NCBI GenBank assembly: GCA_964441265.1
Contig: CAYYKJ010000005.1
Location: 29,867-93,866, forward strand
Source: an uncultured archaeon
GTDB lineage: Archaea > Aenigmatarchaeota > Aenigmatarchaeia > QMZP01 > QMZT01
Direction: 5' to 3'
Length of the DNA: 64,000 nucleotides
Positions 1,717-56,386 of this stretch are shown in pieces. The position numbers were made by a program, and so were the translations under genes. The notes under the pieces were generated by a model. It was not told the origin of the DNA and searched no databases. It saw only the letters and a program-made list of their open reading frames with translations. Within the stretch, counting starts at the first letter, position 1; each line of letters opens with the position of its first letter.

Positions 1717-2211
1717 TTACTGTATCTCTTCCAGCACTTCTTTTATCCTGTCAACGAATGTTTTTGCGTTATTCATCAATATTTTACATCTTCCTGCTTC
1801 CATGGAGGTTTCCGAGCCATATTGCATTTCTTCTCTGATTGATTTTGCATCCTCAGTACCTTCCTGCAAACTTCTGATCATATCAATATATCCTTTTTCA
1901 AGGATGATCGTTTTGTCCTTCATGAATTTCTCAATTGCCGTAATGGTGCATTCCTGATTTCTCGATTCATATCCCATTCTGTAAAGTACTGCCAGTAATG
2001 CATGATACATGGCATAGAAGGCAGCGGAGGTGACCCAGTCAGTCTTTTCACCGTCATATAAATATTGCATCGTTTCTAAATCAGACTCAGCCTTTTTTAT
2101 CTGTTCATTGAAATTTGTCGTTCCCTTTTTCATTTTCCTCAGACCTTTATGTTTCATTTTCCTTTCTCCTTGTTTCAGGCACCACTTAAAGTTATTTTCA
2201 ATCCTACCCAT
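1717..2211 (-). CDS. HEPN domain protein (toxin-like partner of the MNT)
   Basis: The 164-aa helical protein has an AAFYAMYHALLAVL-type HEPN core. It overlaps the upstream nucleotidyltransferase gene by 8 nt. Confidence 0.7.
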   Translation of the reverse strand: MGRIENNFKWCLKQGERKMKHKGLRKMKKGTTNFNEQIKKAESDLETMQYLYDGEKTDWVTSAAFYAMYHALLAVLYRMGYESRNQECTITAIEKFMKDKTIILEKGYIDMIRSLQEGTEDAKSIREEMQYGSETSMEAGRCKILMNNAKTFVDRIKEVLEEIQ

Positions 2212-2791
2212 TCTTTATGGCCTCCACGAGGAAATGTCTCCCCCAAAGAATTATTCCTGTTCTTATTTCTTCCAGAATTGACTCATCCCTCTTTTTTATA
2301 TTTTTGATCATATCCCTTTCTGTCTGATAAACCGCATGGACCCTTTTTGATTTTACCCTGTTTATGTTATCGATCAACTTCTCAATATCTTCCATGTTCT
2401 TCCGTCGGAAAACAAGCAGAATATCTATATCATTAGCACGTTTCCCTTTCTTCAGTACCGAACCAAAAAGAATTGCCATTTCTGTTTTGGGTTTCAGTTT
2501 TTCCAGATCTTTCACCCACGCCCTTACATAGGGACTTGCTTTTTTCTCTGTCAGCACGAACTTGCACGCGTCCAATGCATCTTGTGACTGGTAATTTATT
2601 TTATAAAAAATATTGTTACCCAGTCTTTTTGCCTCAAGGAATTTCTGACTCTCCAGTTTTTTAAGTATCTTGAACATGCCTCCCGGACTTATACCCAGTT
2701 CCTTTGCCAGCTGATTTATGTTGTATTCTCTGGAAAAATTCCTAATCAGGAATTCCATGGTCCGGGCCTCATTTTCAGTCAAGGAAACCAT
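2204..2791 (-). CDS. nucleotidyltransferase (MNT-like) with N-terminal winged HTH
   Basis: It contains LFGSVLKKGKRANDIDILLV (the GS...DxD minimal NTase motif) after a wHTH (NINQLAKELGISPGGMFKILKKLE). The start was moved to ATG 2791 because the longer ORF runs into the converging glycosyltransferase gene. Confidence 0.7.
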   Translation of the reverse strand: MVSLTENEARTMEFLIRNFSREYNINQLAKELGISPGGMFKILKKLESQKFLEAKRLGNNIFYKINYQSQDALDACKFVLTEKKASPYVRAWVKDLEKLKPKTEMAILFGSVLKKGKRANDIDILLVFRRKNMEDIEKLIDNINRVKSKRVHAVYQTERDMIKNIKKRDESILEEIRTGIILWGRHFLVEAIKNG

Positions 2792-2922
2792 TTTATTTAC
2801 CTCTGGTATATAATTATTCACTAGGGGTATATAAACGTTTCTTTTATTCATTCGCCCTGCAGAGCACCGGAAGAAGCGGGAAAGGGCGGAGAAGATGATC
2901 GACAAATTCGTATGATCTTCGG

Positions 2923-4122
2923 CTATTTTGGATCCAAGTAATACCTGAACATCTTGATGTAATCGAGCAGGTGCCTGGTTATCAGGAAATTTTCCCTCAC
3001 GTGCTCCTTGGCGGCTTTGCCCATTCTTTCCCTCATCTTTCTGTCCTCGAGCAGCTGCACGCACCTCCTGGCGGCCTCGTCGTAGTCGCTTACGAGGAAG
3101 CCCGTCTTCCTGTCCTTCACCTGCAGGGGTATCCCCCCTACCCTCCTCGCCACCACGGGGGTCTCCTTCCAGAGCGCCTCCGAGACGACGAGACCGAACC
3201 CTTCCTTCTTTGAATTCTGTATTATAATGTCCGACTCCCTCTGGAGGGCGTTCACCAGCAGGTCTGAACTGAGTGCGAGTGCCTTGATGTCGCCGTCGTT
3301 CTTTTCGATCCTCCTCATTATCCTGTGGTATATCTCCGGACCTTCAGGGTCGTCGGTGGCCATCTCCCCCAGGAGTATGAGCCTGCAGTCTACCTTCTTC
3401 TTCACCCTCTCGAAAATCTTCAGGACACCCACGGGATCCTTCCACTTGTCGAATCTGGATATCTGGCATATTATGGGCTTGTCCGTTTCTATTCCGTTGT
3501 GTGAGAGTATCTTCCTGTATCTGCTGTCGGTGAGTATCTTGTTCTTCGGGGAGAGCGGATCTATGGAAGGGGGTATTATGAACTGGGGCATGTCCAGGTT
3601 CTTCCTGTATTTCTTCATGGAGACCACCATGCCGTCGTATCTTTTCAAAAAGCCCTTCACTAGGTCCCATGCGGGCCTGTAAGGACTGCTGAGATCGACG
3701 TGGCACCTCCATATCCACGGCTGGGTCTTCTTGTAGAATTTTATCATTCCCAGTGGCTGTGGGTCGTGGATTATCACGAGGTCATGATCCAGGTGGTTCA
3801 TTATGGCGTTCCTTTCTATCTCTTCCATGTACTTTTTCAGCGATTTACTGCCGAGGTGGGTCCTGCCTCCCTGAAGTCCGTTGTGCAGCTTCTTGGTCAA
3901 GCCGAAAAAGGTAAGGGTGCCTTTTAGTATCCTCCATCCCGTTTCTATCTTGAGCTCGTCCAGCAGGATTACCAGCCGGTTGAGTATCTCGGAGACGCCG
4001 CCGCCCGTATATACCGAATTTATGTTGGTCACGTGGCTGTTTTCTATGGGCTCCGCTTCCTCCCTGATCTTCTCGATCAATTCCTGCCCGACGATTTTCC
4101 TGTAATCCTTGAGTCTTATCAT
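2923..4122 (-). CDS. GT4-family glycosyltransferase, trehalose-synthase (TreT)-like
   Basis: The N-terminal NSVYTGGGVSEILNRLV and the C-terminal E..GFGLVVSEALWK motifs fit the GT-B fold. The ORF track start is 4167. ATG 4122 is preferred because TTATATAA lies 24-33 nt upstream of it. Confidence 0.7.
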   Translation of the reverse strand: MIRLKDYRKIVGQELIEKIREEAEPIENSHVTNINSVYTGGGVSEILNRLVILLDELKIETGWRILKGTLTFFGLTKKLHNGLQGGRTHLGSKSLKKYMEEIERNAIMNHLDHDLVIIHDPQPLGMIKFYKKTQPWIWRCHVDLSSPYRPAWDLVKGFLKRYDGMVVSMKKYRKNLDMPQFIIPPSIDPLSPKNKILTDSRYRKILSHNGIETDKPIICQISRFDKWKDPVGVLKIFERVKKKVDCRLILLGEMATDDPEGPEIYHRIMRRIEKNDGDIKALALSSDLLVNALQRESDIIIQNSKKEGFGLVVSEALWKETPVVARRVGGIPLQVKDRKTGFLVSDYDEAARRCVQLLEDRKMRERMGKAAKEHVRENFLITRHLLDYIKMFRYYLDPK

Positions 4123-4179
4123 GAGGCCACCTGAAGAACCTATCGTTATATAATTGTAGTCAATCATTCAAAAATATTA

Positions 4180-4187
4180 TTTTAAAT
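4180..4187 (+). promoter_or_regulatory. TATA-like box upstream of the tRNA-Leu gene
   Basis: TTTTAAAT lies 30-37 nt upstream of the tRNA 5' end at 4217. Confidence 0.4.
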
Positions 4188-4216
4188 TTAATAACGAATT
4201 AAAACAAATAGAAAGT

Positions 4217-4499
4217 GCGGGGGTACCCAAGCAAGCTCTTTTCAGGAAAGAGCTTTGGGAATGGTTAAAGGGGCAGGTAGGGAGAGGGAGGACCCCCTCG
4301 CGGGCGTCTTCTGATCCCTTGCCATACTTAAGGGAATTAAGTGCTGAGCGTTTCGCTGTGAAGTAATGCCTTCTGAGCCATCCTGTGGCTTAGTGCCTTC
4401 GTGGGTTCGAAACCACGCTTTTTCAAGAAAAGCGTGGGAGCAAAAGGAGCTTCGTTCGCTAGCTCACTCGCTTCCAGGGTGGAATACCCACCCCCCGCA
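4217..4499 (+). tRNA. tRNA-Leu(UAA) with four predicted introns (D-loop 16/17, 30/31, 37/38, 59/60)
   Basis: Removing 4233-4261, 4278-4325, 4333-4379 and 4413-4486 leaves an 85-nt class II cloverleaf: GCGGGGG TA CCC AAGCTGGTTAAA GGG G CAGGA CTTAAGA TCCTG TGGCTTAGTGCCTTC GTGGG TTCGAAA CCCAC CCCCCGC A. It has U8, A14, G18G19, A21, U33, G37, G53-C61, TTCGA, C48 and A73. Confidence 0.78.
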
Positions 4500-4564
4500 T
4501 TCCTTCCGGTCCGGGTTTCAGATTTATTAGTTTCTTAGGGCATATTATACATTAGGGGACGTCT

Positions 4565-11618: not shown

Positions 11619-12215
11619 ATGAAAATGACAAAACCTGCATTCGTTAAATTCGAGGTCCCCAAGGACTTCACCGACAAGGTATATGAGGCAGTGGAGATAG
11701 CCAGATCTAGCGGGAAGCTCAGGAAAGGGATAAACGAGACCACCAAGTGCATAGAGAGGGGTCTGGCAAAGCTTGTTGTGATGGCAGAGGATGTGACACC
11801 GGAAGAGATAATGATGCACATCCCGGTTCTGTGCAAGGAGAAAAGCGTTACATTCGCTTACGTTCCTTCCAGGGCAGAGCTCGGAAAGGCGGCCGGCATA
11901 GAGATCCCCACCAGCAGCATAGCCATAGAGGAAGCCGGGGAATCGAAGAACCTCATCGGCCAGATAGCCAAGAAGGCGGAGGCTCTCCAGAAGGGCGGGA
12001 AAGCAGAGAAATCCGCTGAGAAGAAGGAGCAGAAGTCCGAAGAGAAAGAGGAGAAGCCAGCCGAAAAGAAGGAAGAGAAGCCGAAAGAAGAGCCCAAGAA
12101 GGAAGAGAAGAAAGAGGGAAAAAAAGAATCCGCCGGCAAGGAAAAGAAAGAAGAGAAAAAAGAAAATAAAGAGAAGTCCGGAAAGAAGATGGAAAAGAAG
12201 AAGGAAAAAAAATAA
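11619..12215 (+). CDS. rpl7ae: ribosomal protein L7Ae with ~75-aa Lys/Glu-rich C-terminal extension
   Basis: It contains KPAFVKFEVP...GKLRKGINETTKCIERGLAKLVVMAEDV...FAYVPSRAELG, followed by a KKEEKPKEEPKKEEKKEGKK tail. ATG 11625 is an alternative start. Confidence 0.9.
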   Translation: MKMTKPAFVKFEVPKDFTDKVYEAVEIARSSGKLRKGINETTKCIERGLAKLVVMAEDVTPEEIMMHIPVLCKEKSVTFAYVPSRAELGKAAGIEIPTSSIAIEEAGESKNLIGQIAKKAEALQKGGKAEKSAEKKEQKSEEKEEKPAEKKEEKPKEEPKKEEKKEGKKESAGKEKKEEKKENKEKSGKKMEKKKEKK

Positions 12216-31385: not shown

Positions 31386-34300
31386 TCATTTCTTTTTCCC
31401 GCGCTTCTTTTTCTTCTTCCCCTTCTTCCTGGAATGTTTCTTCAGTGATCCCCTGAGGCTGTCCAGGTATATCTCGGTCATCCTGAAGGCCCCCGTCTTC
31501 AGCTTGTCCTTGGCCAGTTTGAGCTCCAGCTTTATGTCGGTGGTGTCCACCTTCTTCTTTTCCAGAGACCTTATCTCCCTCTCCATCTCCTTGAGCTCCT
31601 TGGCGAACTTCTTGTACTTCTCGAGCTCCTCCTCCGGTATCTTGTGCGGGGAATGGAGCAGCGGGCGGAAGGCCACGAAATAAGGCCTCCCCCTGTTATA
31701 CTTGGGATTCTGAACCATTCCCACTCCGACCTCCTGTTTGGTTATCCTATTGGAGTATTCCTCCCCGTATTTCTTCTTGACCCTGTCTATGTCCCCCAGA
31801 CCCTTGGTGTGGAGCTGGAACTCGGTCAGTACGTTTCCCTTTATGGCCTCCTTGAAGTCCGCCAGGACCTGGGAAAGCATTATCATGCCTATGCCCCACT
31901 TCCTGAACTCCCTGCATCCCCTTTCCAGCGCGACGTATCCGCCGCTCCCGCCGTACTTCTCCAGCAGGCGGTGGACCTCGTCGAAGATTACCAGGAGCCT
32001 CAGTTTGGGAGATTCCTCCCAGTCCGTCTCGAATATGGTCTGGACGATGTTCTGGACCGCCTGGTCGAACTCGCCCGGCTTGAGCTTGTTGAGCATGAAA
32101 ACCGTTATCTCCGAGGGGTTCATGAATTCCTTGAACTTAATCTTCACTTTGGGATCAGTGACCTCGAATATCATCCCCTTGAAGGGCATTGCGTCGGTCT
32201 CCTTCATTCCGAACTCGTCGTATCTGTCCAGCATCTTCCTGTCCGTGCACCTCTTCACGAAACCGGTCCACTGTCCCGTGGGGTCGAACACGACCACGGG
32301 TATCTTCAGCTTCAGGCACTCCTCCACCGTTACCATGGCGGATACGGACTTCCCCGCTCCGGTTGCCCCTGCGGAGAGTATGTGGGTGGTCAGGTCGTCC
32401 GGGTCGAGCCACGCCTTGGTCCCGGTCTCCGCTATCTTCCCCATGTATATGGGACCCTTGGGAAGCTTCTTGTAGTCCACGGGGAAAAGGTACCTCCTTC
32501 TCCTCAGCTTCCATTTGCTGTACCACCTGCTCCCCTTCCATCCCACGATGAGGGCGACGGCGATTGCTATGGCCGCGATTAGCATGTATATTTTATCCAT
32601 TGTCCAGAAGGGCTCCACCACCTCGAATATGTCAGCCGAGCTGGCCGTCTTGTTCTCGTAGGAGGCGACCACCTCTATGTAGAATTTACCGGGGTATATG
32701 TTTATTTCGTCCAGGGGGAAATTCTTGACCATGGAGAGCGTCGTCTCCAGGGCCATCTCTTCTTCCTTGTATGCCAGCAGCTTGTTCGTGTTGACGTCGC
32801 GTATGTTGTGGGTCAGGTGGACGTCGAACTTCTTCTTGTACCCGAGGTTGAAGAGAGAGAGCCGGTATCGGACCGTTCCGTTCTGGCCGAGAATCTTGGT
32901 CAGCACTTCCACCTTCACATCCATGAGCGCCTCCTTCTCCGTCACTATCCTCAGCGTCACCGGGATGGTGTTAGGCGTGTCGTCCACCGTAACCAGAAGC
33001 TCCCCGTTGTATACCCCGGGCGGGGCCGACATGGGAGCGAAGAACTTGACCTTTACTGTCTTTGCTGACTGTTCGTCTATGCTGAAAGACCTGCTCTGTA
33101 GCTGGGTGAACTCCCATATCGTTCCGGTGACCTCCATATCGACATCGGAGGCGTCTTCCTGCCGGTTCTCTATGGTTATGGGATAAAGCCTGCTCTCCCC
33201 CGGAAGCAGCTCTATGTCTATCACATCCGTGTCTATGGCGTACGGCTCCTCTTCTTTTGGGCAGTCCTCCGGGCAGTTCTGGTAGTTTTCCCCGGTCTCG
33301 CACCTGTCATTGCCGCAGACAGCCCCGGCGCTGACCCCTCCGGTATATCCCCCTCCGGGTGTTTCCTCCTCGTCGCCCGGTCCGGGGGCCCAGCAGTCCT
33401 CCGGGCAGTTGTCGCTGGATTCCCCGTAGACGTTCTCGCATATTTCGTTGCCGCAGACCACCTCCTCCGCCGCCACGAAGGCGGAGAAATTATCCACGGT
33501 AGCGGTCACGGTCTCCGTGTCCACGTCGACAGAACCGCCCCTGTTGATCCAGGTGGAATTGCATCCGTTTTCGGTCCAGTCCCAGTCCCGGCACTGGTAC
33601 ACCCTTATCACGTCGATGAAGTTGTGTTCGTACCCGGTCCCGGTGAAGTTCATGGAGATATTCGCACGGGAGAAGTTCATGGTGGAGTTGACGGCGAATG
33701 CCTTGAGTATGACCCTCGTCAGGGGTATGCTTATGTATTTCAGGGCGATGTCATCGAATCCGACCGGATCGGTCATGTTCTCCGTCACGTTGATGCCGAA
33801 CATCCCCACCGCGTCCATGCTGCTGTTGATTTTCCACTCGATGTCGTAAACCCTCCTGTAGACGTCCCTGCTGTAGTTTCCTGAGGAGTTGGTGGAGAAG
33901 CTGTTGAGCAGGTAATCCGGAGACAACGACCTGTTGTCCCTGTACATGAAGAAATCTGAGAGCACCGGCTGGCCTTCCATGTCCAGAATCGTCCCGTTTA
34001 TGGTGACCATGTCAGACGGGTAGACGGCGAACCACCATGTGATGTTCCGGAGGTTGCCGTTCTTGTCCCTGGCGTAAAGGACGTAATCGTGATCGCCGAT
34101 GGAAAGTCCGGAAAGGTTTACCGCCCAGTAGGTGGAGTTGGTTTCAGGGGTCTGGTTCTGGAGCCAGCGGACACTCACGCTCCCGTTCGGGTGGGTGAGA
34201 TTCATGCTGACGTTGCTGACGTATTCCTTGTCCGTCAGGTAGGCAAGGACCTCCACTGTTCCCCCCTCCGTCACGGATTCGGATGTGACGTTGACATTGT

Positions 34301-37300
34301 ACGGAGGAGTGGTGTCCTTGTAATAGACCGCGTCAGTCTCGGTATCATTGGCCACGGTCCCGTCGAAACTGTTGGTTGTGTTTATGGTCAGGTTGTGGTA
34401 CTCGGCATCGGTGAGGTTGGGGGCGGTGCATTCCAGATACCACAGCTTGAACGGGCCTATGTAGGATGACGATTCCAGTGCGCAATCCTCTTCGTCGAGA
34501 CGTATGTCGAAATCTACGCCGTCGCTCACCGGAGAGAGCCGGTGGGTGACGTTCGCCGTTATCTGGACGCGGTCACCGGGCAGAACGTCCACCGCCTTGT
34601 CGGAACTGGTGGGCGAGGTGATGTTTATCATGGTGGGCGAAGCTACTGTTATGTGAGTGGAGTTAGTGGCGCTTCCGGGCGAGGAATCCGGGTTGGTCCA
34701 GTATGCGGTGAAGTTTATCGTGTAATTGGCCGGCTGGGTCCCGTTGGGGATCGTCACCGAATATGACCTGGTGCAGTTCTCCCCTGCCCAGACGTCGCCG
34801 CAGCCCTGGAGTCCGGGTACGATTTCCCACCCGGGAGGGAAGTATGTGTGGTTGACAGAGGAGCTGTACAGGAAGCCCTGGCCGGTGTTGGTCAGGTTAA
34901 GCGATATGTTGAAGGTGGTCGAGTAGTTTGCCGTCACGTTGTTGGTCCAGTAGTGACTTGGCATGGTCGTGAAGGCAGGAGATATGGTCTGGTTCTGCAG
35001 GTAGAATGCGTTGCTTGTGCTGGTTCCGTTGCCGTTGTAGTATTCGGAGTCCGTCGTGTTCATCTTCAGGTCATACCAGCCGGCGGGCATGCCGGTGGAA
35101 TCCCATGAGCAGTTATACCATCCGTTCCCCTCGTCATTCGCCGGTGAGCAGCTGAATTCGCTGCCGTTGCTCTCCGGGAAGAAGCTGACATCCGCCGGGG
35201 TCGCGGGATCGCTGCACTCATCCGTGGCGTTTCCCCTGAAGAGTATGCTCTGGGATTCGTAGTGATAATCACCCGCTGGCCGGGTTATGTTGTGCGTGAT
35301 CCACCCCGCCACGGTGAAGTTTCCCTGGGAGGAATTGTATTCCTTGTAGAGCGAATCCCCCAGCCCCGCTTCCCAGTACTGGTAATACACCGAGTAGGTG
35401 CAGTTTATACTGTCCAGATAATATCTGCAGTACCCCCCGGAATCCGTGGTGTTTTCGCTCTCGGTTGTATAGGAGATTCCGTCCCTGGTGGACCAGAAGG
35501 TACAGTTCCTGCCCCCTTCCAGGGGAATGCCCCTGTCGGAATCGGTAACCATCACCTCTATGAGCGCCTTCTCCCCCGCATTTCTGGACAATGTGGTGGA
35601 GGAGTTCCCGGTTATCTCTATCAGCAGGTCATCCCTCTCTATCGAGGGCCCGGTGAACTCGGAGGTGTTGCTGGCGTTGTTGTAGTCGTCCTTGTATTCG
35701 AACATGAATCCCATGGTTTCCCCTATGTCCGATGAGTTGAACGGCCTTATTGTCCAGTATGGCGTGCTTCCGGCTCCCACCAGTTTGGTCTCGTTCTTCT
35801 CCCACGTTCCGCTGTTGTTTATCCAGAGCGTCACGTTCACATCGTCACCGTTATGGTCGTAGACGAACACGGAATAGTTGTATTCCGCCCCCCAGCCGTC
35901 CGTTGAGTTGGACACATTGGCATCGCTCAGCTGGGGGGGCTCGTTGACCGTTGTGACATTTATGATTAACTCGTCCCAGCATTCTCCTGCAGGGGAGCAG
36001 GTGGAATTGGTCGCGTTCGCCTGTATGGTGCAGGGACCGGTCGTTTCCGGATACCCCAGGGGAACGGTCACGTTTATGTCGATCACTATGTGGGTCCCGC
36101 CCGTGAGGTTCGAGACATTTTTGGGTATCAGGGTTATCTTCCTCTCGTCGAGGGGGTTGGCGCAGAATCCGCTCTTGTTTGTGAACCGGATGTCGGAAAG
36201 CTCTGCGCTGCAGTCAGCGTCTATTGTGAAATTCCCTATGGTCGTGGTCCTCCCTATGAACGCGCCCCCCGCTATTTCATCCTCCCTTATCTCAAGATCA
36301 TAATTCTCCGTTACGTTCACCTCGGTTTCGTTGACTGCTGAATTCTCTGTGCCTATCATGTTCGTCCAGTTGGCCTTGAAGCCTACGTAGTAAATGCCGG
36401 AGGTGGTCCCGTTGACCACGAGAACGGTGAAATTTCTGGTGCAGTTGTTCCCTGTCTCTACCATGCCGCAATTATGACTCACCGGGGTCACGTTCCACCA
36501 CCCTGGGAAATAGCTCCTGTTTATGGTGGCGTTGTAGAGATATGCCTCTCCCGTGTTGTTGAGAACGGCGGTGAGGTTGAACGTCTGGTTGAGGTATTTT
36601 GTGACGTTGTCTGTTTCCTTATATATGGGAATGAGAAGCAGATCCGCGAAGGTCTGGGTGGCCTCCAGAACGAGGGCGTCCTTTTTGTTGTAGGTGCCGT
36701 TGTAATAGACCGGGGTCGAAGGCGGGGAGGGGAGATTGGTGGTGTTCATGGTGATGTTGTACTTTCCGGTCTCCTGATTCCATGAATCCCATGTGCAGTT
36801 GTACCAGCCGCTCCCTTCGTCATTCACCGGGGTGCACTGGCTCACGTTTATACCGTTCTCGTTTATCAGGTGGAATTCCACGTTGCCCAGACCGTCCACC
36901 GTGTTATCGCAGTCGTCGGTGGTGTTTCCCCTTATCGTTATGTTTTCCCCTTCCAGATAGTTTTCCCCGTCCGGGGTTTCTATTTTGTGTCTGAACTGGC
37001 CCACCACGTCAAGCTGGGATGTGATTTCGGCGTAATCGTAGTACTTGCTTTCAGAGACCTTCCCGTACCAGTCCTGGTGACCGACGTAATAGCTACAGTC
37101 CGGATTGAAGTACCTCCTGCAGTACCCCTCAGAGGAGGTGTTGGAAAATGAGTCCGGACTCCCTCCTCCGGTCAGGGTGACGTTTATGTAGCAGGCTATG
37201 TCGTAGATGGCGAGGGTCCCCCTGTCGGTGTCGTTTATGGAATATTCTATCAGCGTTTTCTTTGTTCCGTCCCTTGGTGCCTCGCAGTCGTCGCAGGCGG

Positions 37301-40300
37301 TCACCACCAGGGTTATGTTGTCCTTCTCCAGCTTTCCCGTTCCCTCTGACGTGTTCATCTGGTTGAAACTGTCGTTCACCCGGAACCTGTAATTATAGGT
37401 TTCGTTGTCATCTCCCGCGTATAGATCGGTCCCGTTATAATCCTTCGCCTCCATGGAGCAGGTATAGGGTGCCTGCTGCGTGGTGGAATTCTTCATGACC
37501 CAGATTCCGCTCGCGTTCGACCAGAGTTCGCATGTAACGTTGTCATTCTCCGGGTCCGTTATGCTCACGTTGTAGGTGAATGTGGAACCCCATCCCTCCT
37601 GGTAGGGATCCACCGAGAGGGAGGACCATCCGGGCTCAAGGTTGTCCAAAAAGAACCAGTCCCCCTCCGAAACGCTCCCGTTGTTGTAATAGGTCCCGGA
37701 GTAGTTCATCCTCACGTCCCAGTCCCCCTCGTCCTTTCCCGTCGAGTCCCAGGAGCAGTTGTACCATCCGTCCCCCTCGTCATCCACCGGCGTGCATTCC
37801 TCCCAACTCATCCCGTCCAGGCTCACTTCGAAGGTCGCCCCAAGACCGGAAACCATCTCCCCTTCATCATCGGTGACGTTCCCCCTCAGCGTGACAATGT
37901 CCGTAACGTTGTGGTCCTCCTCGTACTCCACCATACCGAAGAGATCACCGAACACGGTCACGTTATAAACGCTGGAGTTCTCGTCATCATAGTACTCGTC
38001 CCCCTCCGTCCCTATAATCCACTCCTGCCTCCCCACCGAATAGATCCCGGACGGATCAAAGCTGAAGTTCGCATACCCTTCCGGATCGGTCACCCCTGAG
38101 CTGTCCGGATTATACCCGGCCCCGTCAGTGGTCACCCACAGACTCACGTTAACATCACTCCCCAAGAAGGCGTCCCTGTCCGTGTCGAACACCCTCACCT
38201 TCAGGTCCGTGGAATTCGTCCCCGACCTGTTCACCTCGCTCTCGTTCCCCGCGACATACTCAATCGAGACGTTGTCCTTCTGCACGTATGGACCGCTGAA
38301 TGTAGTTGTATTGGTCAGGTTGTGCTTTTTGTCTCCGGTGGAGTTCAGGTCGTTGTATTCGAACAGGTAGTTCCTTGTCTCTTCCGTGTCGGAGAAGGAG
38401 AACGGACTTATGGTCCAGTTCACCATCGTGCCGGAACTCACGACCTTGGTTTCGTTCCTCATCCATGTCCCTCCGGGGTTCACCCAGAGCGTTATGTTGA
38501 TGTCATCGTCGTTGTTGTCGAATACCTGGACAGAATAATTGTATTCGGCTCCCCACCCGTCCACCTGCTCTGTGACCTGTGCGTTGCTCAGGACCGGAGG
38601 ATCGTTCACTATGGAAAGGTTAAGGGTGACCGTTTCCCAGCATTCGTTCGCCGGGGAACAGGCCGTTCCCGTGGCGTTGGCCCTCAAGATATACACTATC
38701 CCCTCCTCTTCTTTGTCATCTGACTGGGAGGTGGCATTTATGTTTATTTTCATGGTATTCCCTCCCGGGAGGGAGGAGACCGGATCCGGGAAGAAGTAGA
38801 CAACCGGATCGGGCGGCATGTTCAGACATGCCCCGGAGAGACATTCTATTTCCACGTCGGAGAGGTTTCCGCTGCCGAAGGCCACGAGGGTGAAATTCCC
38901 GATGGTCGTGGTTGTCCCTGAAGAGGCGTTCCCGTAGACGACCGATTCTGATATTTCAAGCTTATAGTTTGGTGTGACATTCACCATGGTCTGGTTGGCG
39001 GCGGACTTGTTCACCAGGTTCCCTTGGGTCCAGTTTCCGGTGAGGTTCACGTAATATATTCCCTCCGTGGTCCCGTTGATCACGGTTATGGTGAAATTCT
39101 CTGTGCAGTTTTCCCCGGGAAGGATGTCCCCGCAGTCGTGTATGGAAGGGGAAATGGTCCAGTTTTCGGGCATGGTGTGGTTGTTTATGGACGCGTTGTA
39201 AAGCTTTGAAAAGCCGGTGTTGTTCAGGGTGACCTGTATTTCGAATGTCCTGTTGCTGCTCCTGTTGATCCCGTCCACTATGTTCTCCTCCGGAATTATG
39301 AGCAGGTCAGCCGAAGTGTCGTTTGTCTGGAGGAAGAAGGCGTCCACCTTTTTGTATTCACCCCCGTATCTCAGGTTGTGGTCGGTGGAATTCATGGTTA
39401 TGTTGTAGTTTCCCATCTTACCACCGCTGGAATTCCACGTGCAGTTGTACCATCCGCCGCCGTCATTTGTCACGGGGGTGCACTGGGTCACGTTATCCGC
39501 CTCGTTTTCCAGATAGTAGAAAACCTTCCCGTCCAGCGTCTGGATGGTGTTGCCGCAGTCGTCGGTGGCCCTGCCCCTGATGGGAACGTTTTCTCCCTCC
39601 GTGTAGTCCTCCCCGTCGGGTATTTGTATCTGGTGGTATATCTGTCCCCAGATGTTCACGTTTTGGCTGGTGATCGTTGCGGTCTTGTAATAACTGTTTT
39701 CGGGGATCTCTCCCATGAAGTCCTGCTGCCCCAGGAAATATTCCCCATCCCCGTCCGTGCTGTTGCACCCCGGGTTAAAGTACCTCCTGCAGTACCCGGG
39801 GCTCGTGGTGTTAGAGAAGGAGTCGTAGTTCGAGAAATCTCTGGTCACGTTCAGACGGCATTCGATCTGATGCGTGATGAGACCTCCCCTGTCCAGATCG
39901 GTTATGTTGTATGAGATCAGCGTCAGAGTGTATTGATCCCTGGGGGCGTGACAATTGGAGCAGTCGGTGACCTCCAGTTCTATGTCGTCCTTCTCAAGCG
40001 TCCCGTTCTCCGTCGTTGTGTTTACTTCGTTGAAGGTGTCGTTCAGCCGGAACTTGAAAAGGTAATCACCCTGATAATCCCATTCGTAGTCATCCGCGTG
40101 GAGCGAGCATATGTACGGTGCCTGGGCGGTCATCCTCCCTTTGAGGACCCATCCCCCGCCCGCGTTGCTCCATAGCGTGCAGGTCACGGAATCGTTCTCC
40201 GGGTCGCTGACTGTGGTGTTGTATGTGAAATTGTATCCCCAACCGTCTACAGGGGGATCCACCAGCAGCGGGGATGAGTTGTAAGGCTCAAGGTTGTCCA

Positions 40301-43300
40301 AAAAGAACCAGTCCCCCTCCGAAACGCTCCCGTTGTTGTAATAGGTCCCGGAGTAGTTCATCCTCACGTCCCAGTCCCCCTCGTCCTTTCCCGTCGAGTC
40401 CCAGGAGCAGTTGTACCATCCGTCCCCCTCGTCATCCACCGGCGTGCATTCCTCCCAACTCATCCCGTCCAGGCTCACTTCGAAGGTCGCCCCAAGACCG
40501 GAAACCATCTCCCCTTCATCATCGGTGACGTTCCCCCTCAGCGTGACAATGTCCGTAACGTTGTGGTCCTCCTCGTACTCCACCATACCGAAGAGATCAC
40601 CGAACACGGTCACGTTATAAACGCTGGAGTTCTCGTCATCATAGTACTCGTCCCCCTCCGTCCCTATAATCCACTCCTGCCTCCCCACCGAATAGATCCC
40701 GGACGGATCAAAGCTGAAGTTCGCATACCCTTCCGGATCGGTCACCCCTGAGCTGTCCGGATTATACCCGGCCCCGTCAGTGGTCACCCACAGACTCACG
40801 TTAACATCACTCCCCAAGAAGGCGTCCCTGTCCGTGTCGAACACCCTCACCTTCAGGTCCGTGGAATTCGTCCCCGACCTGTTCACCTCGCTCTCGTTCC
40901 CCGCGACATACTCAATCGAGACGTTGTCCTTCCGGACATCCGCTCCCTGCGAGCCGGTATCGTCCTTCCCTCCCTCATAATCGCTCGCATTGAACTTGTA
41001 CGACCTGGACCCCACGTCATCGATGTTCCAGCCAGGATCGTGCAGAAATGACACTCTCTCATCCGTGCAGGGACAGCTGACATCCATGGAATTGACGAGT
41101 TCCCACCCGCCCCCCCTGTCATACCATAAGCTCACGTTCACCGTGTCCGGGTTGACCTCGTTCAAATCCACCGAATAGTTCCACCATTCCCCCCATCCCC
41201 CGTCCTGTTCCGTCGCTGAAGACGGGCCGCTCAGCACGGGATCGGTGGTGTTGACAGAAAACCTCCCGCCGAAGGAATCGCTCCCGTCGTTGTAATATGT
41301 CTTGCTTGTGTTGACCCTGACGTCATAAGTACCATACGTCTGGTCATGGGGGACGTCCCACGTACAATTATACCAGCCGCCCCCCTCGTCATTCACGGAG
41401 CAGCTGCCGGTTATCTCCTCCCAGCTCCCGCCGCCCGGAAGAACCTCTATCGTGTTCGAGACCCCGCTTACCATGCTGGAGTTGTCATCCGTGACGTTCC
41501 ACCTGAAAAGAACGGAATCGCTCCCGGCCCTGTAGGTCTGGCCGGATGGCTCCTGGAGGGAGGCGTTCAGTTCGCCTATGATGTTCAGGGACCCCTCTGA
41601 GCTGTTGGAATCCTTGTAATACGCTCCCCCCGATATTCCCGCCTTCCAGTTCTGGACTCCTGTGGAATAGTTGTTATCGGGCTCGAAATCCAGGGTGCAG
41701 TGTCCGGTACTGTTGGTGGTGTTTGTCCCTTCGTGTATGTAATTGGAGCCGTCCTTGGTTATCCAGAAGTGACAAGTGATATCAGGGACCGGAAAGCCCC
41801 TGTCAGTGTCGTTTACGAATGCTGTGAGGGTCATTTTCTGTGAGCCGCTCCTGTTGACCTCCCCCCCGTCACCTTCCGTCAGGGAAACCCCCGTGTCATC
41901 CTTCTCCACGGTTACCGGATAGGCAGGGGTGATGTTAGTCTCGTATTCGTCGTCTATCAGCAATCTCCAGTATTGGTTTCCCACAGCATAACGGCTCCAT
42001 GAGGATTTGACGTTCAGGTAGTTCCATCCAGAACACCCCCAGCAGGTGGTGGAGTTCATCGTACTCCATGATCCAGTCCTATTCTCCTGCACAGAGACAG
42101 TTATGTTGTCGGCCTGGTCCTGGTCGCTGACATTGATATAGAAATCCCACGTCTCTCCCCATCCCTTGTTATCGTCTCCAGACACGTCCTTGTACTGAGG
42201 CACGTAGTTTTTCAGGATGAATTCCTGAAGCGAGGAATGGCTCGTCTGTCCCAGCGAATTGTTGGCGTACCAATAATAGCTCATGTTCTGGTGGGACTGG
42301 GTGTAGTTTCCCTGACCTATCGTTATATAATACTCGTCGCTGGCGTTCTGGGCTCCCGTATAATTCATCACGTGCGTTCCGTTGTGGAATTCAAGGGCGG
42401 TCCAGTTGACACCGTAGTCGCTGGTCATGGTCACGTTTATCTGGACGTCCTGGACTATGTTTGGGGGGTCGGGGTCTATCTTATGCCCGGAGAAGCTGAC
42501 CCCCACTATCTCCAGGTCCTTCACTGTCTCCTCCGAGGTGGTGTGACCCTCCACCGTATACGTCGTGTTGACCAGTATGGGATACGTTCCCAGTTCGGAA
42601 GGCGCCTGGAAAGTGATGTTGTAGTCCCCGTCAGCGTCGGTCTCGAAAACGTAATCCTCATTCCCTGTTTCGGTGACATCAGGCTCGGCCCCGAAGAGGG
42701 ATATCCTGTAATTGTCCATAAGTGAATCCGAGGCACTTTCTCCCCAGAGAGAGGCATTATATGGGCCTCCCGGAAGCGAGACCGAATCGTTGCTTACCTT
42801 GGCCTCATCTATGTCCGTGTAAGATTCGGCATATGTATCGTTTCTTAACATGGTCATGTTATGCCAGACGAAGGTGTCTGAGTTAAAGGTTTCATTTGAT
42901 GCAATCGAAAGATAGTTGTATAACCTTATCCGGTTGTAATTGCCTGACCAGTATTGGGCGGTTGAAGCCAGGAACGTTGTATTATCCTTGTAAACACACG
43001 GACCCACTTCGTAAAAATCATAATACTTGAGTTCCGCCGTTATGTTTACGTAGTTGTAGTTTTCCGTGAAATTACTAACGACCCATTTATAATTCTGGTT
43101 GGAGCCGCCAAGACTCATATTACCCTCGCTGCAGTCCAGATTACTTGTACAGTCCTCACCTTCACCCCAGTCTGAAGCGTAATCGTCCTTTATGCACTTC
43201 CACCCGTCGCAGTCGTTGTCGCTGAAATCGTCATAGAATACGTAGCAGGTATCACCCTCGTATTTCATGCAGACTTCCCCGTAGTCCGGATCCCCTGACA

Positions 43301-46300
43301 GTGGGTTGCCGTAGTACATGGTCACGTTGAATATCGAATCTTCCGAGAGGTTGGCCTTGAACCATATCCTGGTTGAGGAGTCGTTGCACGCGGTTTGGTT
43401 GGACCACTCCAGCTCCTCGCCGTCCTGGAAGATCCTGAGGTCGGAGCAGCTGGCGTTGAGCTTCCCCTGGGAAACGAGGGTCTCGGTGTCTATGTCCGCG
43501 TAAACCGGGAACTGGTCTATCCCCTGCCCTCCGGTGTTGTTTATGCTCAGGTTCTCTCTGTATGCCCAGTTGTAGTCCCACCACCCCTCTGGATGGGAGT
43601 CACCTATCGAATATATGTCCACCATCCCGTTTATCAGGGTGCCGTTCATGTACATGTTGAAGGCGTGGTTCGCGAGGTCGGTTCCGTTGGTGAGATTTAT
43701 GTGTCCCCAGGCGGAGACGTATTCATGCTGGACCGTGGTCTCGTTTGGCTCCAGTGTTTCGGAAATTAGTATGCCGGGATAAACTAGGAGATTCGTTGAA
43801 TTTTTTCCTGATACCTCATCATCATTAACGGTCACCGTATATATTCCGTAATCTCCGGAGGAAATGTTCGGTGCCAGGAAGGATATGTTGTAGTATCCCG
43901 TTGCGTTGCTCATGTCTGATCCGTAAAACGTGTCGTTCAGGTAAAGGCTTATGTTCTCGTTTTCGATAGGCGAACCAGTTGAGGAATTGACGACCTGACC
44001 GTAAACGCTTATGTTTTTTCCCGAAAAGGTTTCATTCTCCGACAGCTCTTCTGAAATATTGATTTTCGTTTCAATGTCAGTTTCAGTGCTGTTGACCCAT
44101 GAAGACCATTCCGTCCCGTTGTATGCCCTGCAGCTGAACTTCCATGATTGCCAGCTGGTGATGTAAGAGCTGTCTACCATATCCAAAAAATTGCTCTGGT
44201 CGTTCGTCCAGAAGGAGCTGTATTCGCTGGAGTCCGTGGTCACGCTGGGATCGCTCACATTATGATTGCCCGTGTCGCCGTCCCCGATCTGGCCGTCGCC
44301 GCCATGTCCCCAGCACAAAACCCTGCCGTCGCTTTCGCGGATTCCGCATGTATGATAATAGCCGGCGGCAACGCTCGTGTATTCGCTCGAATCCGTGGTA
44401 ACGTTAGGATCTCCCGCCCCGTGGATGCTTGTGTTCCCATCGCCCAGGCGCCCGTATGTCCCGTTACCCCAGCACAAGACTCTGGAGTCATTGGCCCTTA
44501 TCCCGCATGTATGGTAGTTCCCCGCAGAAACGCCCAGGTATTCGCTGTCGTCCGTGGTCACGTTTGGATTGCCCACGCTGTGGTCGCCGACGACACCGTC
44601 CCCGAGTTGGCCGTGGTCACCGAACCCCCAGCACAAAACCCTGGAATCATTAGCACGAATACCGCAGGTATGTTGAAATCCGTTAGAGACGCTAATATAG
44701 GCGCTGTCGTCCGTTGTCAGGGTGAAATACGGTACGTTGTGCTGGTCAGTTCTTCCGTCCCCGATCTGTCCATTGTTCCCGCGTCCGCAACAGAGCACTC
44801 TGGAATCGTTGGCACGAACGCCACATGTATGCACTCCTCCCGCACTCACGCTCAGGTAAGCACTGTCATCCATGGTCAAGTTCGGGCTGCCCACGTCATG
44901 GATATCAACATTCCCGTCACCCAATCTCCCCCCGTATCCGTATCCCCAGCACAGCACCCTCGAATCGTTCGCCCTGATGCCGCATGTATGGGCATCCCCC
45001 GTCGAAATGCTGAGATATGCGCTCTCATCAGTGGTCAGGTTCGGATGTCCCACGCTGTGGGCGTTGGTGTCCCCGTCACCCAGCTGACCTTCGTTACCCA
45101 GACCCCAGCACAACACCCTGGAATCGTTGGCACGAACGCCACATGTATGCACTCCTCCCGCACTCACGCTCAGGTAAGCACTCGTATCCATGGTTACATT
45201 GGGAGAACCCGCCTCGTGGGCGTTGGTGTCCCCGTCCCCGAGTCTTCCCTGGTTGCCTAACCCCCAACACAAAACCCTGGAATCGTTCGCCCTTATGCCG
45301 CATGAATGTTCATCACCTGCGCTGATGCTCCCTTTCTTGAAGGCCGTCCCGTTCACCCACTCGACTGAATCATTATACCATTTGTATTCGAACTTCCGTA
45401 TCTCGGCGTCCTCGTCCCCGGTCGCATTGCAGTACCCTCTCAGGTTGTCGTTGGGGTTGGCCGTGTCGGGCTTTATGGTCACGTCGTTTATGGAGACGGA
45501 GAGGATATCGTATTCATCCCCGCCCTCGTCCTGGCTCTGGTTTGTGCCTTCTTCCACCGGCTGCATGGTTGTTATGTTGTTGACCGCATTCCAGGCGTCT
45601 ATCCTTGAGATGTTTGTCGTATAGGTCGAATTGACCTGATAGGGTACCGGTTTCCCGGTGGTCTTGAGCATATGCTCCACCTCTCCGGGCAGGAGGGGTT
45701 CGTTCTCCAGAAGCAGTGCCGAAACCCCCGAAACGAAGGGGACGCTCATGCTGGTCCCGCTCCTTTTCGAGTATTCCCCTCCCATGGTCCTTACCCGGAT
45801 GTCCTCCCCGGGGGCGAGGAGATCTGTCCAGTGATTCACGCTGGAGAAGGAGGCGATTTCGTCATCCTTGGTGGATGCCGCCACGCTTATCACCCCGGAG
45901 CCGCAGGCGGGAGACTTTATTTTCCGGGAGCCGTCGTTCCCGGTCGCCGCTATGACCAGAGTCCCATTGTCGACGAGCTGGTTGCAGTATTCAGCCACCG
46001 GGTTGGAGTCGCAGTAGCCGTCGTAGCTTCCGGAACCTATGGAGAGCGAGATTACATCCGCACCCTCCTGTTCGCAGTATTCCAGACCTTCAAGCACGTC
46101 GGATTCGTATCCTTTCCCGTCCCTGTCGATGACCTTGGCGACGACAAGGTCTATACCCGGTGCGACCGAATCCAGTATGCTGGCCACCTCAGTGCCGTGT
46201 CCCTGGTCGTCCCATGGGTCGTTGTCATCGTTCACGAAGTCGTGGCCTTGGGAGAAGGAATGGATATACATATAGTTGATTCCGGTGTCCAGGAAGCAGA

Positions 46301-50614: not shown

Positions 50615-51070
50615 ATGGAACTTAATTATGACACAGATGTCACACTGCACGAGAAATACATTTCCTGTATAAATAATCTCATCGGAGACGCAAAAAAATA
50701 CATGAGAGAAAACCGATTTTCAGAAGCGCTGGAAGTACTCAATTTCGCGAGACCTAAACTGAAAGAAGTGTTTTTGAATTGCTTTGACAGCCTGGATTTT
50801 CTTAAGTCCAGGGAATATATGGAAAATGCGTATGCGGAGGCTCTTTTGGGCAAAATTGGGGCCCAGTATATAGGAAAATTAAAATTGACTGACAATGACG
50901 ATCCGTTTGGTGTTCTTTTTTACAGCGGAAGGGGACCCATTGAGAAAATAAATGAATCCATGGAAAAATTTAATGAATTCGTGAAAACGAATATTGATAT
51001 AGCTGTTGACAATAAAAAGAATTATGGGAGTAAGGGTTTTCAGGCTCGGCCACAGGATATCCAGGGATAA
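50615..51070 (+). CDS. hypothetical protein
   Basis: A 151-aa ORF with no motif. Its 3' end overlaps trm56. Confidence 0.4.
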   Translation: MELNYDTDVTLHEKYISCINNLIGDAKKYMRENRFSEALEVLNFARPKLKEVFLNCFDSLDFLKSREYMENAYAEALLGKIGAQYIGKLKLTDNDDPFGVLFYSGRGPIEKINESMEKFNEFVKTNIDIAVDNKKNYGSKGFQARPQDIQG

Positions 51071-51542
51071 GAGGATATCCACACATGTCGCTTTGGTGGC
51101 CAGGGCATTTGGCGCTGAAGGAATCGTGTACAGCGGGGAGAAGGATTCCGGCATGGAGGAGTCTGTCCGCTCCGTGGTGGAGCAGTGGGGCGGGGAGTTT
51201 TTCATAAAATACGAAAAGAGCTGGAGGTCCTTTCTGAATTCATGGAATGGCCGCATAGTCCACCTGACCGTTTACGGGATGCCGGTGGAGGAGAAGATCA
51301 TCGAGATCAGGAAGGGAAGGAAGGACCTGCTCGTGGTGGTCGGAGGGGAGAAGGTGCCCGGGGAGATATACGACCGTGCGGACTACAACGTTTCTGTCAC
51401 CGGCCAGCCCCATTCCGAGATCGCGGCCCTTTCCATACTTCTGGACCGACTGTTCCGGGGGGAGGAACTCGGAAGAAAATATCCCCGGGCGAAGAGAAGG
51501 GTCATTCCCCGGGAGAGAGGGAAGAAGGTTGTGGAGAAATAA
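51024..51542 (+). CDS. trm56: tRNA (cytidine56-2'-O)-methyltransferase aTrm56 (SPOUT family)
   Basis: MGVRVFRLGHRISRDKRISTHVALVARAFGA matches the aTrm56 N-terminus. The start was moved from 51006 to ATG 51024. Confidence 0.75.
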   Translation: MGVRVFRLGHRISRDKRISTHVALVARAFGAEGIVYSGEKDSGMEESVRSVVEQWGGEFFIKYEKSWRSFLNSWNGRIVHLTVYGMPVEEKIIEIRKGRKDLLVVVGGEKVPGEIYDRADYNVSVTGQPHSEIAALSILLDRLFRGEELGRKYPRAKRRVIPRERGKKVVEK

Positions 51543-55441: not shown

Positions 55442-55643
55442 TGTCCCGGACAGCTGTGCATCGGTGCAGGCACTGTCCAAGGACTTGCCTGGAGCATGCT
55501 TGAACTACATGCCCGGCTGTAGCGCGTGAGAAGAGATCCGATCCGTAATTGCTCGCGCCGTGAAATTCAGCAGCGATAGCCGAAAAATGCGTTAAAGCTG
55601 CGGTGCGGCCCAATGGGGCCATTGGGCAGCCGGGCTACATAAG

Positions 55644-55815
55644 CGCGTGCCGTTAACTCGTGGTCTGACGACAACAACGGCCCGTTGTGCGTTAATGTCG
55701 GAAGAGCATCTTCCAGCAGCGCAAACCTCAACAACGAGCCCCGGAACAGGAAAGACGGCAAGCGAACGCTTGTCTTTGCCCTGAACTCGAATATCGGCTC
55801 GTTCGCCGCGAATAG
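55644..55815 (+). repeat. DGR template repeat (TR)
   Basis: It is the A-rich counterpart of the VR, with AAC/AAT codons in the VR reading frame. It contains two extra segments, about 55696-55725 and 55754-55786. Confidence 0.85.
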
Positions 55816-55858
55816 TTCGGGTTGTCCGGGACCAATACTGATAACAGGACGGTCAGGC

Positions 55859-56386
55859 ATGTCTTACGGTTTGATTTTCCAGAAAACGTACGATCTTGTC
55901 AAATGGGTCTATCCGACCGTCAACAGGTTTCCAAGGAAGCAGCGGCTAATACTGTCGCAGAGGATAGAAGTGACCACTATCAGGATTCTTGAACTCGTTA
56001 TCGACATAAGCCGGCGGGACACCGAAACGACCAGGAGAAAAATACTCCACGAACTTCGCAAGCTCCAGATCCTGCTCAGGTTGTCAAAGGACCTCTCATA
56101 CCTAAGCTTCAGGAAATACGAGCACGCAAGCTCATTGCTGGACGAGATCTCGCGCATTCTTGATAATCGGGGGGGGGGGGGCACCGCATGGATTGCGGAA
56201 ATTTATACGATGAGCTGTGCTCTTTCAGGAATCTTGAGCTTGCCTTCAGGAAAGCCAGGAAAAACAAAAGATGCAGGAAAGACGTGCAGGACTTTGAGTT
56301 CAATCTGGAGAAGAATCTGCTGCGACTCAAGAGCGAGCTTGAGTCCCTTTCTTACAGACCAAAGCCTCTCAAGCAATTTGTTATAA
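55859..56386 (+). CDS. avd: Avd (accessory variability determinant, four-helix bundle); the 3' end is uncertain because of the G13 tract at 56169-56181
   Basis: MSYGLIFQKTYDLVKWVYPTVNRFPRKQRLILSQRIE...LRLSKDLSYLSFRKYEHASSLLDEISRIL is typical of Avd over about 105 aa. After the G-run, the frame as given continues 66 codons into the RT gene. Confidence 0.65.
   Translation: MSYGLIFQKTYDLVKWVYPTVNRFPRKQRLILSQRIEVTTIRILELVIDISRRDTETTRRKILHELRKLQILLRLSKDLSYLSFRKYEHASSLLDEISRILDNRGGGGTAWIAEIYTMSCALSGILSLPSGKPGKTKDAGKTCRTLSSIWRRICCDSRASLSPFLTDQSLSSNLL

Follow-up and report, generated by a model that had tools for sequence, protein, structure and literature searches.

The locus described here raises the question of whether a transfer RNA (tRNA) gene spread over only 283 nucleotides (nt) can be interrupted by four introns and still be a working gene. 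It lies at positions 4217-4499 on the forward (+) strand of the window, by which we mean the whole 64,000-nt stretch of DNA analyzed (contig CAYYKJ010000005.1 of assembly GCA_964441265.1, from an uncultured archaeon of the Aenigmatarchaeota). A first-pass annotation had described this segment as a multiply interrupted tRNA-Leu(UAA) gene bounded by GCGGGGG at one end and CCCCCGC plus A at the other, and reading the sequence confirmed these limits. We conclude that the locus is very probably a functional tRNA-Leu(UAA) gene with four introns of the bulge-helix-bulge (BHB) type. The four-intron reading is supported by BHB motifs at all four junctions, by a spliced product that is recognized as tRNA-Leu(taa), and by orthologues in which the exons are conserved and the introns vary.

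Standard searches gave no indication of the gene. ARAGORN reported zero tRNAs in the raw 64-kb window, and Rfam gave no tRNA match in the raw DNA at its gathering threshold, at E ≤ 5 over the whole window or at E ≤ 10 over positions 4150-4560 alone. Once the four segments were taken out, ARAGORN reported a tRNA-Leu(taa) that folds as a regular class II cloverleaf, and the joined exons carried the anticodon loop CUUAAGA that the first-pass annotation had described. In a spliced dynamic-programming alignment with an orthologous mature tRNA-Leu as the query, the locus scored 98, compared with 18.5 ± 5.3 and a maximum of 30 for 120 other 500-nt pieces of the window. The predicted fold of the 283-nt RNA has a free energy of -123.4 kcal/mol (z = -4.44 versus dinucleotide shuffles), and in this fold the 7-bp acceptor stem closes the whole molecule.

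The five exons, all on the + strand, measure 15, 16, 7, 32 and 14 nt and give a mature tRNA of 84 nt when the first intron is taken as 30 nt. Exon 1 (4217-4231, GCGGGGGUACCCAAG) supplies the 5' strand of the acceptor stem (nt 1-7), U8 and A9, the 5' strand of the D stem, CCC(A), and A14 and G15; it agrees with the exons of orthologues. Exon 2 (4262-4277, UGGUUAAAGGGGCAGG) contains G18 and G19, the remainder of the D-loop, the 3' strand of the D stem, G26 and nt 27-30 of the anticodon stem. Exon 3 (4326-4332, ACUUAAG) is a 7-nt micro-exon spanning nt 31-37 that holds the anticodon UAA. Exon 4 (4380-4411) begins with A38 and continues through the 3' strand of the anticodon stem, the long variable arm GGC-UUAGU-GCC and the 5' T-stem strand GUGGG into the T-loop (UUCGAA), which exon 5 (4486-4499) completes with A60, followed by the T-stem strand CCCAC, the acceptor strand CCCCCGC and the discriminator A73. 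The gene does not encode CCA. With the intron lengths of the first-pass annotation, the same DNA parses as GCGGGGGTACCCAAGC, TGGTTAAAGGGGCAGG, ACTTAAG, ATCCTG...GGTTCGAA and ACCCACCCCCCGCA. The variable arm, the 3-bp D stem (CCC/GGG), A73 and the anticodon UAA identify the product as a class II tRNA-Leu; this part of the earlier description holds, whereas its length of 85 nt becomes 84 nt with a 30-nt intron 1. RNAalifold likewise returned a class II cloverleaf for 29 spliced sequences (the window and 28 DPANN orthologues), with compensatory changes in 13 of the 24 pairs and no broken pair in the window; part of exon 4 is invariant in this set by construction of the search. Since the five exons are colinear and all lie within 283 nt, a split or permuted tRNA gene was ruled out.

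The junctions were examined with the rule that archaeal BHB introns obey: a 4-nt helix strand is followed by two bulge bases, the cut and the third bulge base, and at the other end of the intron the second helix strand is again followed by two bulge bases, the cut and the third bulge base. The rule was verified against the geometry of the canonical 37/38 site and then applied to all combinations of two cut sites in the precursor. At each of the four junctions the 4-bp central helix is paired throughout and both bulges are 3 nt long and in register, so that the folding of the junctions, which had been named as a check, gave a BHB motif at every one.

Intron 1 (30 nt, 4232-4261, +) interrupts the D-loop at 15/16. 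Its central helix is CCCA/UGGG and its bulges are AGC and AAU; it has a 10-bp helix h' and no outer exon helix h, which makes it a motif of the relaxed HBh' type, and it was the top match of the BHB scan. Intron 2 (48 nt, 4278-4325, +) lies at 30/31 and has a full hBHBh' motif, with the central helix GGCA/UGCC, bulges GGU and AUA, 3 bp in h and 5 bp in h'. Intron 3 (47 nt, 4333-4379, +) occupies the canonical site 37/38, with the central helix CUUA/UGAG, bulges AGG and CCA and 3 bp in h'; its outer helix h is 1 bp long with intron 2 present and 6 bp long with intron 2 gone. Intron 4 (74 nt, 4412-4485, +), in the T-loop at 59/60, opens with the 10-bp hairpin CCACGCUUUU/AAAAGCGUGG and has the central helix UUCG/UGGA, bulges AAA and AUA, the 5-bp T stem as h and 2 bp in h'. 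For introns 2-4 the BHB register reproduces exactly the lengths and sites first annotated. Intron 1 had been given as 29 nt (4233-4261) at 16/17, and here the BHB register leads instead to 30 nt (4232-4261) at 15/16, with C16 removed.

To see how the gene is organized elsewhere, syntenic loci were reached through homologues of its neighbor, a gene for a trehalose-synthase-like glycosyltransferase; an exact-match query with the 136-aa protein encoded downstream gave no record. The loci L001, L002 and L004 carry an orthologous tRNA-Leu(UAA) gene in the same place. That of L001 (GCA_016932215.1) has two introns, in the D-arm at about 21/22 and at 37/38, and that of L004 (GCA_964447525.1) has three, at these two sites and in the T-loop at 59/60. 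L002, on a Logan contig that ends inside the last intron, has at least four introns, in the D-loop at 15/16, at 37/38, in the variable arm and in the T-loop; the variable-arm intron has a central helix GCUU/GAGC, read by hand. A further syntenic relative, L085, sits on a contig that begins within the gene and shows the canonical and T-loop introns. The exons are near-identical across these loci, exon 4 of the window being the same as that of L004, while the introns vary in presence, length and sequence. Conserved exons with divergent introns are expected of a functional spliced gene and not of a pseudogene. Six distinct insertion sites are thus used in one orthologous gene across five related genomes (the window, L001, L002, L004 and L085).

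A wider survey was conducted by scanning the GTDB species genomes for the exact pattern of 21 nt of exon 4, which gave at least 119 loci, each of which was spliced-aligned; counts from this survey, here and below, are counts among the matches listed. Nearly all loci belong to DPANN archaea (Aenigmat-, Woese-, Pace-, Iain-, Micr-, Nanohalo- and Undinarchaeota). The roughly 115 DPANN tRNA-Leu genes have 0-4 introns, many of them 0, 1 or 2. Three introns occur in seven genes (L004, L006, L011, L088, L092, L093 and L112), and there is one other complete four-intron gene, L029 from Ca. Aenigmatarchaeota NC_groundwater_478, in which one of the four introns has a strict BHB and the rest are relaxed. 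Introns are concentrated in the D-loop, at about 21/22, at 29-31, at 37/38 and in the T-loop at 56-60, and each of the four introns of the window falls in a different one of these hot spots. An intron at 29-31, like intron 2, is found in ten further Leu genes of DPANN archaea, and the site of intron 4 is also used in L004, L085, L112 and others. A strict BHB test, with a 4/4 central helix, h + h' of at least 4 and boundaries derived from the alignments, was passed by 66 of 129 introns, compared with a mean of 1.3 and a maximum of 3 for boundaries displaced by 7-25 nt. ARAGORN was blind to every unspliced locus with three or four introns that was tested and found a tRNA-Leu in every spliced version. 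In a separate search of metagenomes for exon 1 plus the start of intron 1, two loci were recovered, L124 and L125. Both encode a tRNA-Leu(UAG) whose D-loop intron is homologous to that of L002 and the window, and neither is a closer relative of the window. In L125 (Ga0209541_10000626, minus strand, from about 6033 of the reverse complement) there is a T-loop intron of about 190 nt as well, and the gene sits directly 3' of the 3' end of another tRNA.

These comparisons bear on three other ways to read the locus. One keeps the gene but ends intron 1 differently, at 29 nt (4233-4261, 16/17) or 28 nt (4233-4260), which would leave a mature tRNA of 85 or 86 nt. It draws on the acceptance by ARAGORN of spliced versions with a 28-, 29- or 30-nt intron 1, on the minimum-free-energy fold of the precursor, which takes the register CCCAA/UUGGG with a bulge GCA at this intron, and on orthologues whose D-loops include all three lengths. 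A 29-nt intron, however, is incompatible with symmetric cleavage of a single BHB, and the central helix is stronger in the 30-nt register (CCCA/UGGG), which also has the 10-bp h'. The D-loop introns of L002 and L112 also show the junction of intron 1, ...AAG/N...GGGAA/U... (slashes mark the cuts), which supports the 15/16 boundary. L002 has G and not C after G15, as expected of an intronic bulge base, and L112 needs the AG/N register to restore the usual AGUCUGG D-loop. The shorter forms of intron 1 are therefore unlikely, and its 5' boundary is most likely at 15/16, one base upstream of the original call.

That the locus is instead a decaying or silent pseudogene with accumulated insertions, with a working intron-free tRNA-Leu(UAA) elsewhere, is very improbable. 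Such a reading would agree with the blindness of standard finders and with the rarity of TTA codons. It is contradicted by the intactness of every exon position, down to the 7-nt micro-exon, all matching orthologues while the introns diverge, and by the correct BHB register of each insertion. The syntenic gene is intron-rich in all close relatives (L001, L002, L004 and L085), and no intron-free UAA duplicate is present among the matches listed, which come from different assemblies except for one metagenome-assembled genome with one UAA and one CAA gene. Hardly worth entertaining is the idea that the insertions do without an endonuclease and represent small mobile elements or self-splicing introns of group I or II. 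A hairpin of the form GC-CUUUU...AAAAG-GC, common to introns 1 and 4 and to D- and T-loop introns of other genomes, does suggest a spreading family. But at 30-74 nt the insertions fall far below the length of group I or II introns (above about 200 nt), they have no Rfam match even at E ≤ 10, and BHB geometry is found at all four; mobility and splicing by the EndA endonuclease can moreover coexist.

Several points do weigh against a functional four-intron gene. The exact limits of intron 1 could shift by one base, and in intron 4 the central helix holds two G-U pairs and h' has only 2 bp. The 283 nt also contain BHB-like decoys with helices of similar length, so that a BHB motif is supportive only in combination with the exon evidence. 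Pfam found no EndA, RtcB, Nop5 or fibrillarin in 49 of the 57 window open reading frames of at least 90 amino acids (aa). Only 64 kb of the genome is visible, and an intron-free tRNA-Leu(UAA) may lie elsewhere; within the 64 kb, searches by T-arm plus acceptor, by GGTTCRA sites and by the intron hairpin motif gave no other tRNA gene, intact or recognizably disrupted. The Leu codons of the window are strongly biased to CTG and CTC, and TTA and TTG account for 2 and 10, respectively, of the 283 Leu codons in seven confident window genes. Because both are rare but used, tRNA-Leu(UAA) is needed although demand for it is low, and selection on it may be weak. Finally, the features, motifs and comparative pattern are observed, whereas transcription, cleavage, ligation and their order are predicted from sequence.

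For the gene with four BHB introns, we propose the following pathway. A precursor of about 290 nt would be transcribed from an upstream promoter, with the acceptor stem already closing the molecule. EndA would cut after the second bulge nucleotide at each of the four BHB motifs, an RtcB-type ligase would join the five exons into the 84-nt class II tRNA, and CCA would be added afterwards. The likely archaeal promoter, judged by its position alone, is a TATA-box-like A/T-rich element (TTTTAAATTTAATA, 4180-4193, +) 24-37 nt 5' of the tRNA start. A T-rich trailer (GGGTTTCAGATTTATTAGTTTCTT, 4513-4537, +) may possibly serve as an archaeal oligo-T terminator, and a comparable trailer lies behind the gene of L085. 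In L001 (about 3860-3900) and L004 (about 270-345), both on the minus strand, a conserved leader of about 45 nt containing hairpins of the form GATGAC...GTCATC separates the TATA-like element from the tRNA 5' end; a leader of this kind is absent from the window.

The junctions would also impose an order on this pathway. The outer helix of intron 2 consists of the pairs A22-U34, G23-U33 and G24-C32, and nt 32-34 are claimed as well by the central helix of intron 3, in which C32-A35 pair with UGAG. Given the 7-nt exon 3, these shared nucleotides and the completion of helix h of intron 3 only after the loss of intron 2, introns 2 and 3 would be removed in successive cycles of cutting and ligation, one after the other and never simultaneously. 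Ordered processing has been documented by reverse transcription PCR for three-intron genes of Cyanidioschyzon merolae (PMC3728597), and in genes of the Thermoproteales type one intron must go before another BHB can form (PMC8450103). As intron 1 lacks an outer exon helix, the enzyme must take relaxed HBh' motifs, and the broad-specificity splicing endonuclease that the first-pass annotation had suggested is a reasonable prediction. It agrees with the report of Kaneta et al. 2018 that DPANN EndAs of the alpha4 type with an 'L3' insert accompany more disrupted tRNA genes (PMC5829648). The same authors linked the incomplete predicted tRNA sets of DPANN archaea to undetected disrupted genes (PMC5829648).

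The canonical intron may have a function of its own. Intron 3, a homologue of the canonical introns of L001, L002 and L004, contains at 4336-4363 (+) a module with the layout of a guide and a kink-turn (K-turn). It begins with AUUAAG (4336-4341), antisense to loop nt 32-36, and continues with a UG spacer, a D'-like CUGA (4344-4347), the hairpin GCG-UUU-CGC (4348-4356, GCGUUUCGC) and a C'-like UGUGAAG (4357-4363), which holds a UGU bulge and GA. The same order recurs in many DPANN canonical introns, where a hexamer antisense to nt 32-37 is separated by exactly 2 nt from NUGA, after which come a hairpin or short loop, three bases and GA. When at most one hexamer mismatch was permitted, the first three parts were present in 36 of 80 canonical introns, compared with a mean of 0.94 and a maximum of 4 in shuffles. 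The spacer is 2 nt in 35 of these 36 modules, and the full K-turn arrangement is found in 34. The hexamer follows the anticodon: all 28 UAA genes have CUUAAG or a variant with one mismatch, always with A opposite U34, and 7 of the 8 CAA genes have CUUGAG or AUUGAG, with G opposite C34. The hairpin covaries in turn. With the second GA located by a rule independent of pairing, the three stem pairs next to the boxes were paired in 76 of 89 cases (85%) versus 44-54% in shifted registers, and the modules contain 26 different versions of the 3-bp stem.

The succession of GA, canonical stem, 3-nt bulge and GA is that of a K-turn (or a K-loop where the spacer is short) and has the order of an archaeal box D'/C' pair. 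In box C/D guides the target nucleotide is set by the N+5 rule, and the 2-nt spacing would then make the wobble nucleotide, nt 34, the target. In the window, the K-turn takes the form CUGA-GCGUUUCGC-UGU-GA, and the antisense element lies directly 5' of box D' with nt 34 at N+5. A second box pair is missing, there being only one in these introns, and a full C/D small RNA (sRNA) in intron 3 was rejected on this ground; a CUGA near the 3' end of intron 3 is not conserved in L001 or L004. With its single box pair, the module is not a canonical C/D sRNA and would at most be a single-K-turn 'half-mer' that may act like one. The guide duplex is short: the window has 5-6 bp, and 6-7 bp are usual. In the canonical intron, the guide can pair only when the BHB central helix is open, and the two structures exclude each other in pre-tRNA-Trp as well. 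Nop5 and fibrillarin were not found among the 49 of 57 window open reading frames; L7Ae, a binder of K-turns, is present (11619-12215). No C/D-like features were seen by eye in introns 2 and 4. Taken together, the module looks like an intron-encoded box C/D-type guide for nt 34. Such a guide might pair with the anticodon loop of the very precursor that contains it, or act in trans once excised and circularized, and its role would explain why the canonical intron is retained across DPANN archaea.

The D- and T-loop introns share features of another kind. The GC-CUUUU...AAAAG-GC hairpin opens several introns, in some of which it is followed by (A)GCAAAAGG. In the window these are introns 1 and 4, and elsewhere they are the D-loop introns of L002, L029, L112, L124 and L125 and several T-loop introns. 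An alignment of D-loop and T-loop introns is weak, with a mean column identity of 43%, and what is shared is the hairpin and a AGCAAAAGG stretch. These common elements are suggestive, though not proof, of one intron family that moves between sites, as has been proposed for introns in Thermoproteales. Such mobility would produce the fast turnover of introns seen at six sites in five genomes. We consider it a serious possibility, if one that falls a little short of probable, that the canonical intron of DPANN tRNA-Leu(UAA/CAA) is a minimal single-K-turn guide for 2'-O-methylation of nt 34 and that the D- and T-loop introns form one family moving between sites and Leu isoacceptors. The conservation of the module, its 2-nt spacing, the U34-A and C34-G compensation and the covariation of the hairpin are visible in the sequences; methylation itself and intron mobility are predictions.

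Housekeeping genes in the window, including those for tryptophanyl- and cysteinyl-tRNA synthetases (TrpRS and CysRS), a CDC48-like ATPase, L7Ae, aTrm56 and a homologue of the RuBisCO large subunit, identify it as chromosomal DNA of a DPANN archaeon; the G+C content of the genome is about 52%. The trehalose-synthase-like gene adjoins the tRNA gene (2923-4167, -), and its best named relatives, from Candidatus Aenigmarchaeota (71% identity), place the window among Aenigmatarchaeota. Between it and TrpRS lie genes for a HEPN protein and a MarR-plus-nucleotidyltransferase protein (1717-3064, -), a pair resembling a HEPN/MNT toxin-antitoxin system. In L001 and L002, TrpRS directly adjoins the trehalose-synthase-like gene, and in L004 a deaminase-like gene stands between the two, so the HEPN/MNT-like pair appears to be an insertion. 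The L7Ae-family ribosomal protein (11619-12215, +) has a long Lys/Glu-rich C-terminal tail, and aTrm56, the tRNA Cm56 methyltransferase, is encoded at 51006-51542 (+). The RuBisCO homologue lies at 59691-60962 (+); a form III enzyme of nucleotide salvage is expected in DPANN archaea. One open reading frame of 5176 aa (31386-46916, -) is of the giant kind that is frequent in DPANN genomes. A cassette at 55465-57264 looks like a diversity-generating retroelement: an Rfam RT-16 RNA that reaches the gathering score (55465-55643, +) is accompanied by genes for a bAvd-like protein (55685-56386) and for a reverse transcriptase (56188-57264).

The gene matters beyond this genome in several respects. 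The tRNA-Leu(UAA) that ARAGORN and Rfam miss here is likewise invisible in many related DPANN assemblies. Disrupted genes of this kind help explain 'incomplete' DPANN tRNA sets and should be searched for before tRNA loss or host dependence is inferred. An intron 1 without an outer helix predicts a relaxed-specificity endonuclease in Aenigmatarchaeota, and one gene with introns of differing number and position in close genomes offers a clean system for the study of intron gain and loss. If the module directs methylation of nt 34, an intron-encoded guide would be an extra route to wobble methylation of tRNA-Leu(UAA/CAA).

The 2'-O-methylation of nt 34 in tRNA-Leu is carried out by TrmL in bacteria and Trm7 in eukaryotes. 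In Pyrococcus, trans-acting C/D sRNAs are the route to methylation of nt 34 (PMC7994747). Four of them have nt 34 of tRNA-Leu(UAA), tRNA-Leu(CAA), tRNA-Met and tRNA-Trp as predicted targets (PMC7994747; see also PMC7668247), and only the guide for tRNA-Trp is intron-encoded (PMC7994747), the archaeal pre-tRNA-Trp intron being a box C/D guide for the 2'-O-methylated nucleotides Cm34 and Um39. The literature searched held no report of an intron-encoded guide in tRNA-Leu. The module resembles the pre-tRNA-Trp intron and the Pyrococcus sRNAs (PMC7994747) in having an antisense to the anticodon loop beside a GA-GA K-turn box with nt 34 at N+5. It differs from them in that the guide lies inside a tRNA-Leu intron of 31-80 nt, has one K-turn or K-loop and no second C/D pair, and uses an antisense of 6-7 nt.

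As for the number of introns, the first-pass annotation had noted that archaeal tRNA genes were reported with up to three. This is still stated in the main text of the tRNAscan-SE 2.0 paper (PMC8450103), and reviews concur, but four-intron tRNAs of Asgard archaea have since been tabulated. Supplementary Data 4 of Valentin-Alvarado et al. 2024 lists tRNA-Arg(TCT) and tRNA-Ile2(CAT) of Freyarchaeia with four introns by tRNAscan-SE and R2DT, and tRNA-Leu(GAG) of Freyarchaeia and tRNA-Trp of Atabeyarchaeia with four by R2DT (PMC11291895). Four introns are therefore rare and not unprecedented; a full-text literature search found no four-intron tRNA in DPANN or Aenigmatarchaeota. The Asgard genes are alike in being archaeal, with four predicted or observed introns, many of them non-canonical, and differ in superphylum and isoacceptor; they appear in a supplementary table without junction analysis, and the main text is silent on four (PMC11291895). 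The highly disrupted nuclear tRNA genes of the red alga C. merolae also have several BHB introns at ectopic sites, including the D-loop, 37/38 and the T-loop, but this is a eukaryote with a maximum of three introns and with some genes permuted (PMC3728597). Similar in design are the multi-intron genes of Thermoproteales (Pyrobaculum, Thermofilum and Caldivirga; Sugahara et al. 2007/2008) as the tRNAscan-SE 2.0 paper cites and describes them (PMC8450103). These have short BHB introns at the canonical site and in the D-loop, anticodon stem and T-loop, close introns that force ordered splicing, and genes that simple tRNA finders miss. They have up to three introns, occur in hyperthermophilic Crenarchaeota and are served by an (alpha-beta)2 EndA, whereas the gene described here has four introns and belongs to a DPANN archaeon. 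With four introns, it is at the upper edge of the known range and not a record.

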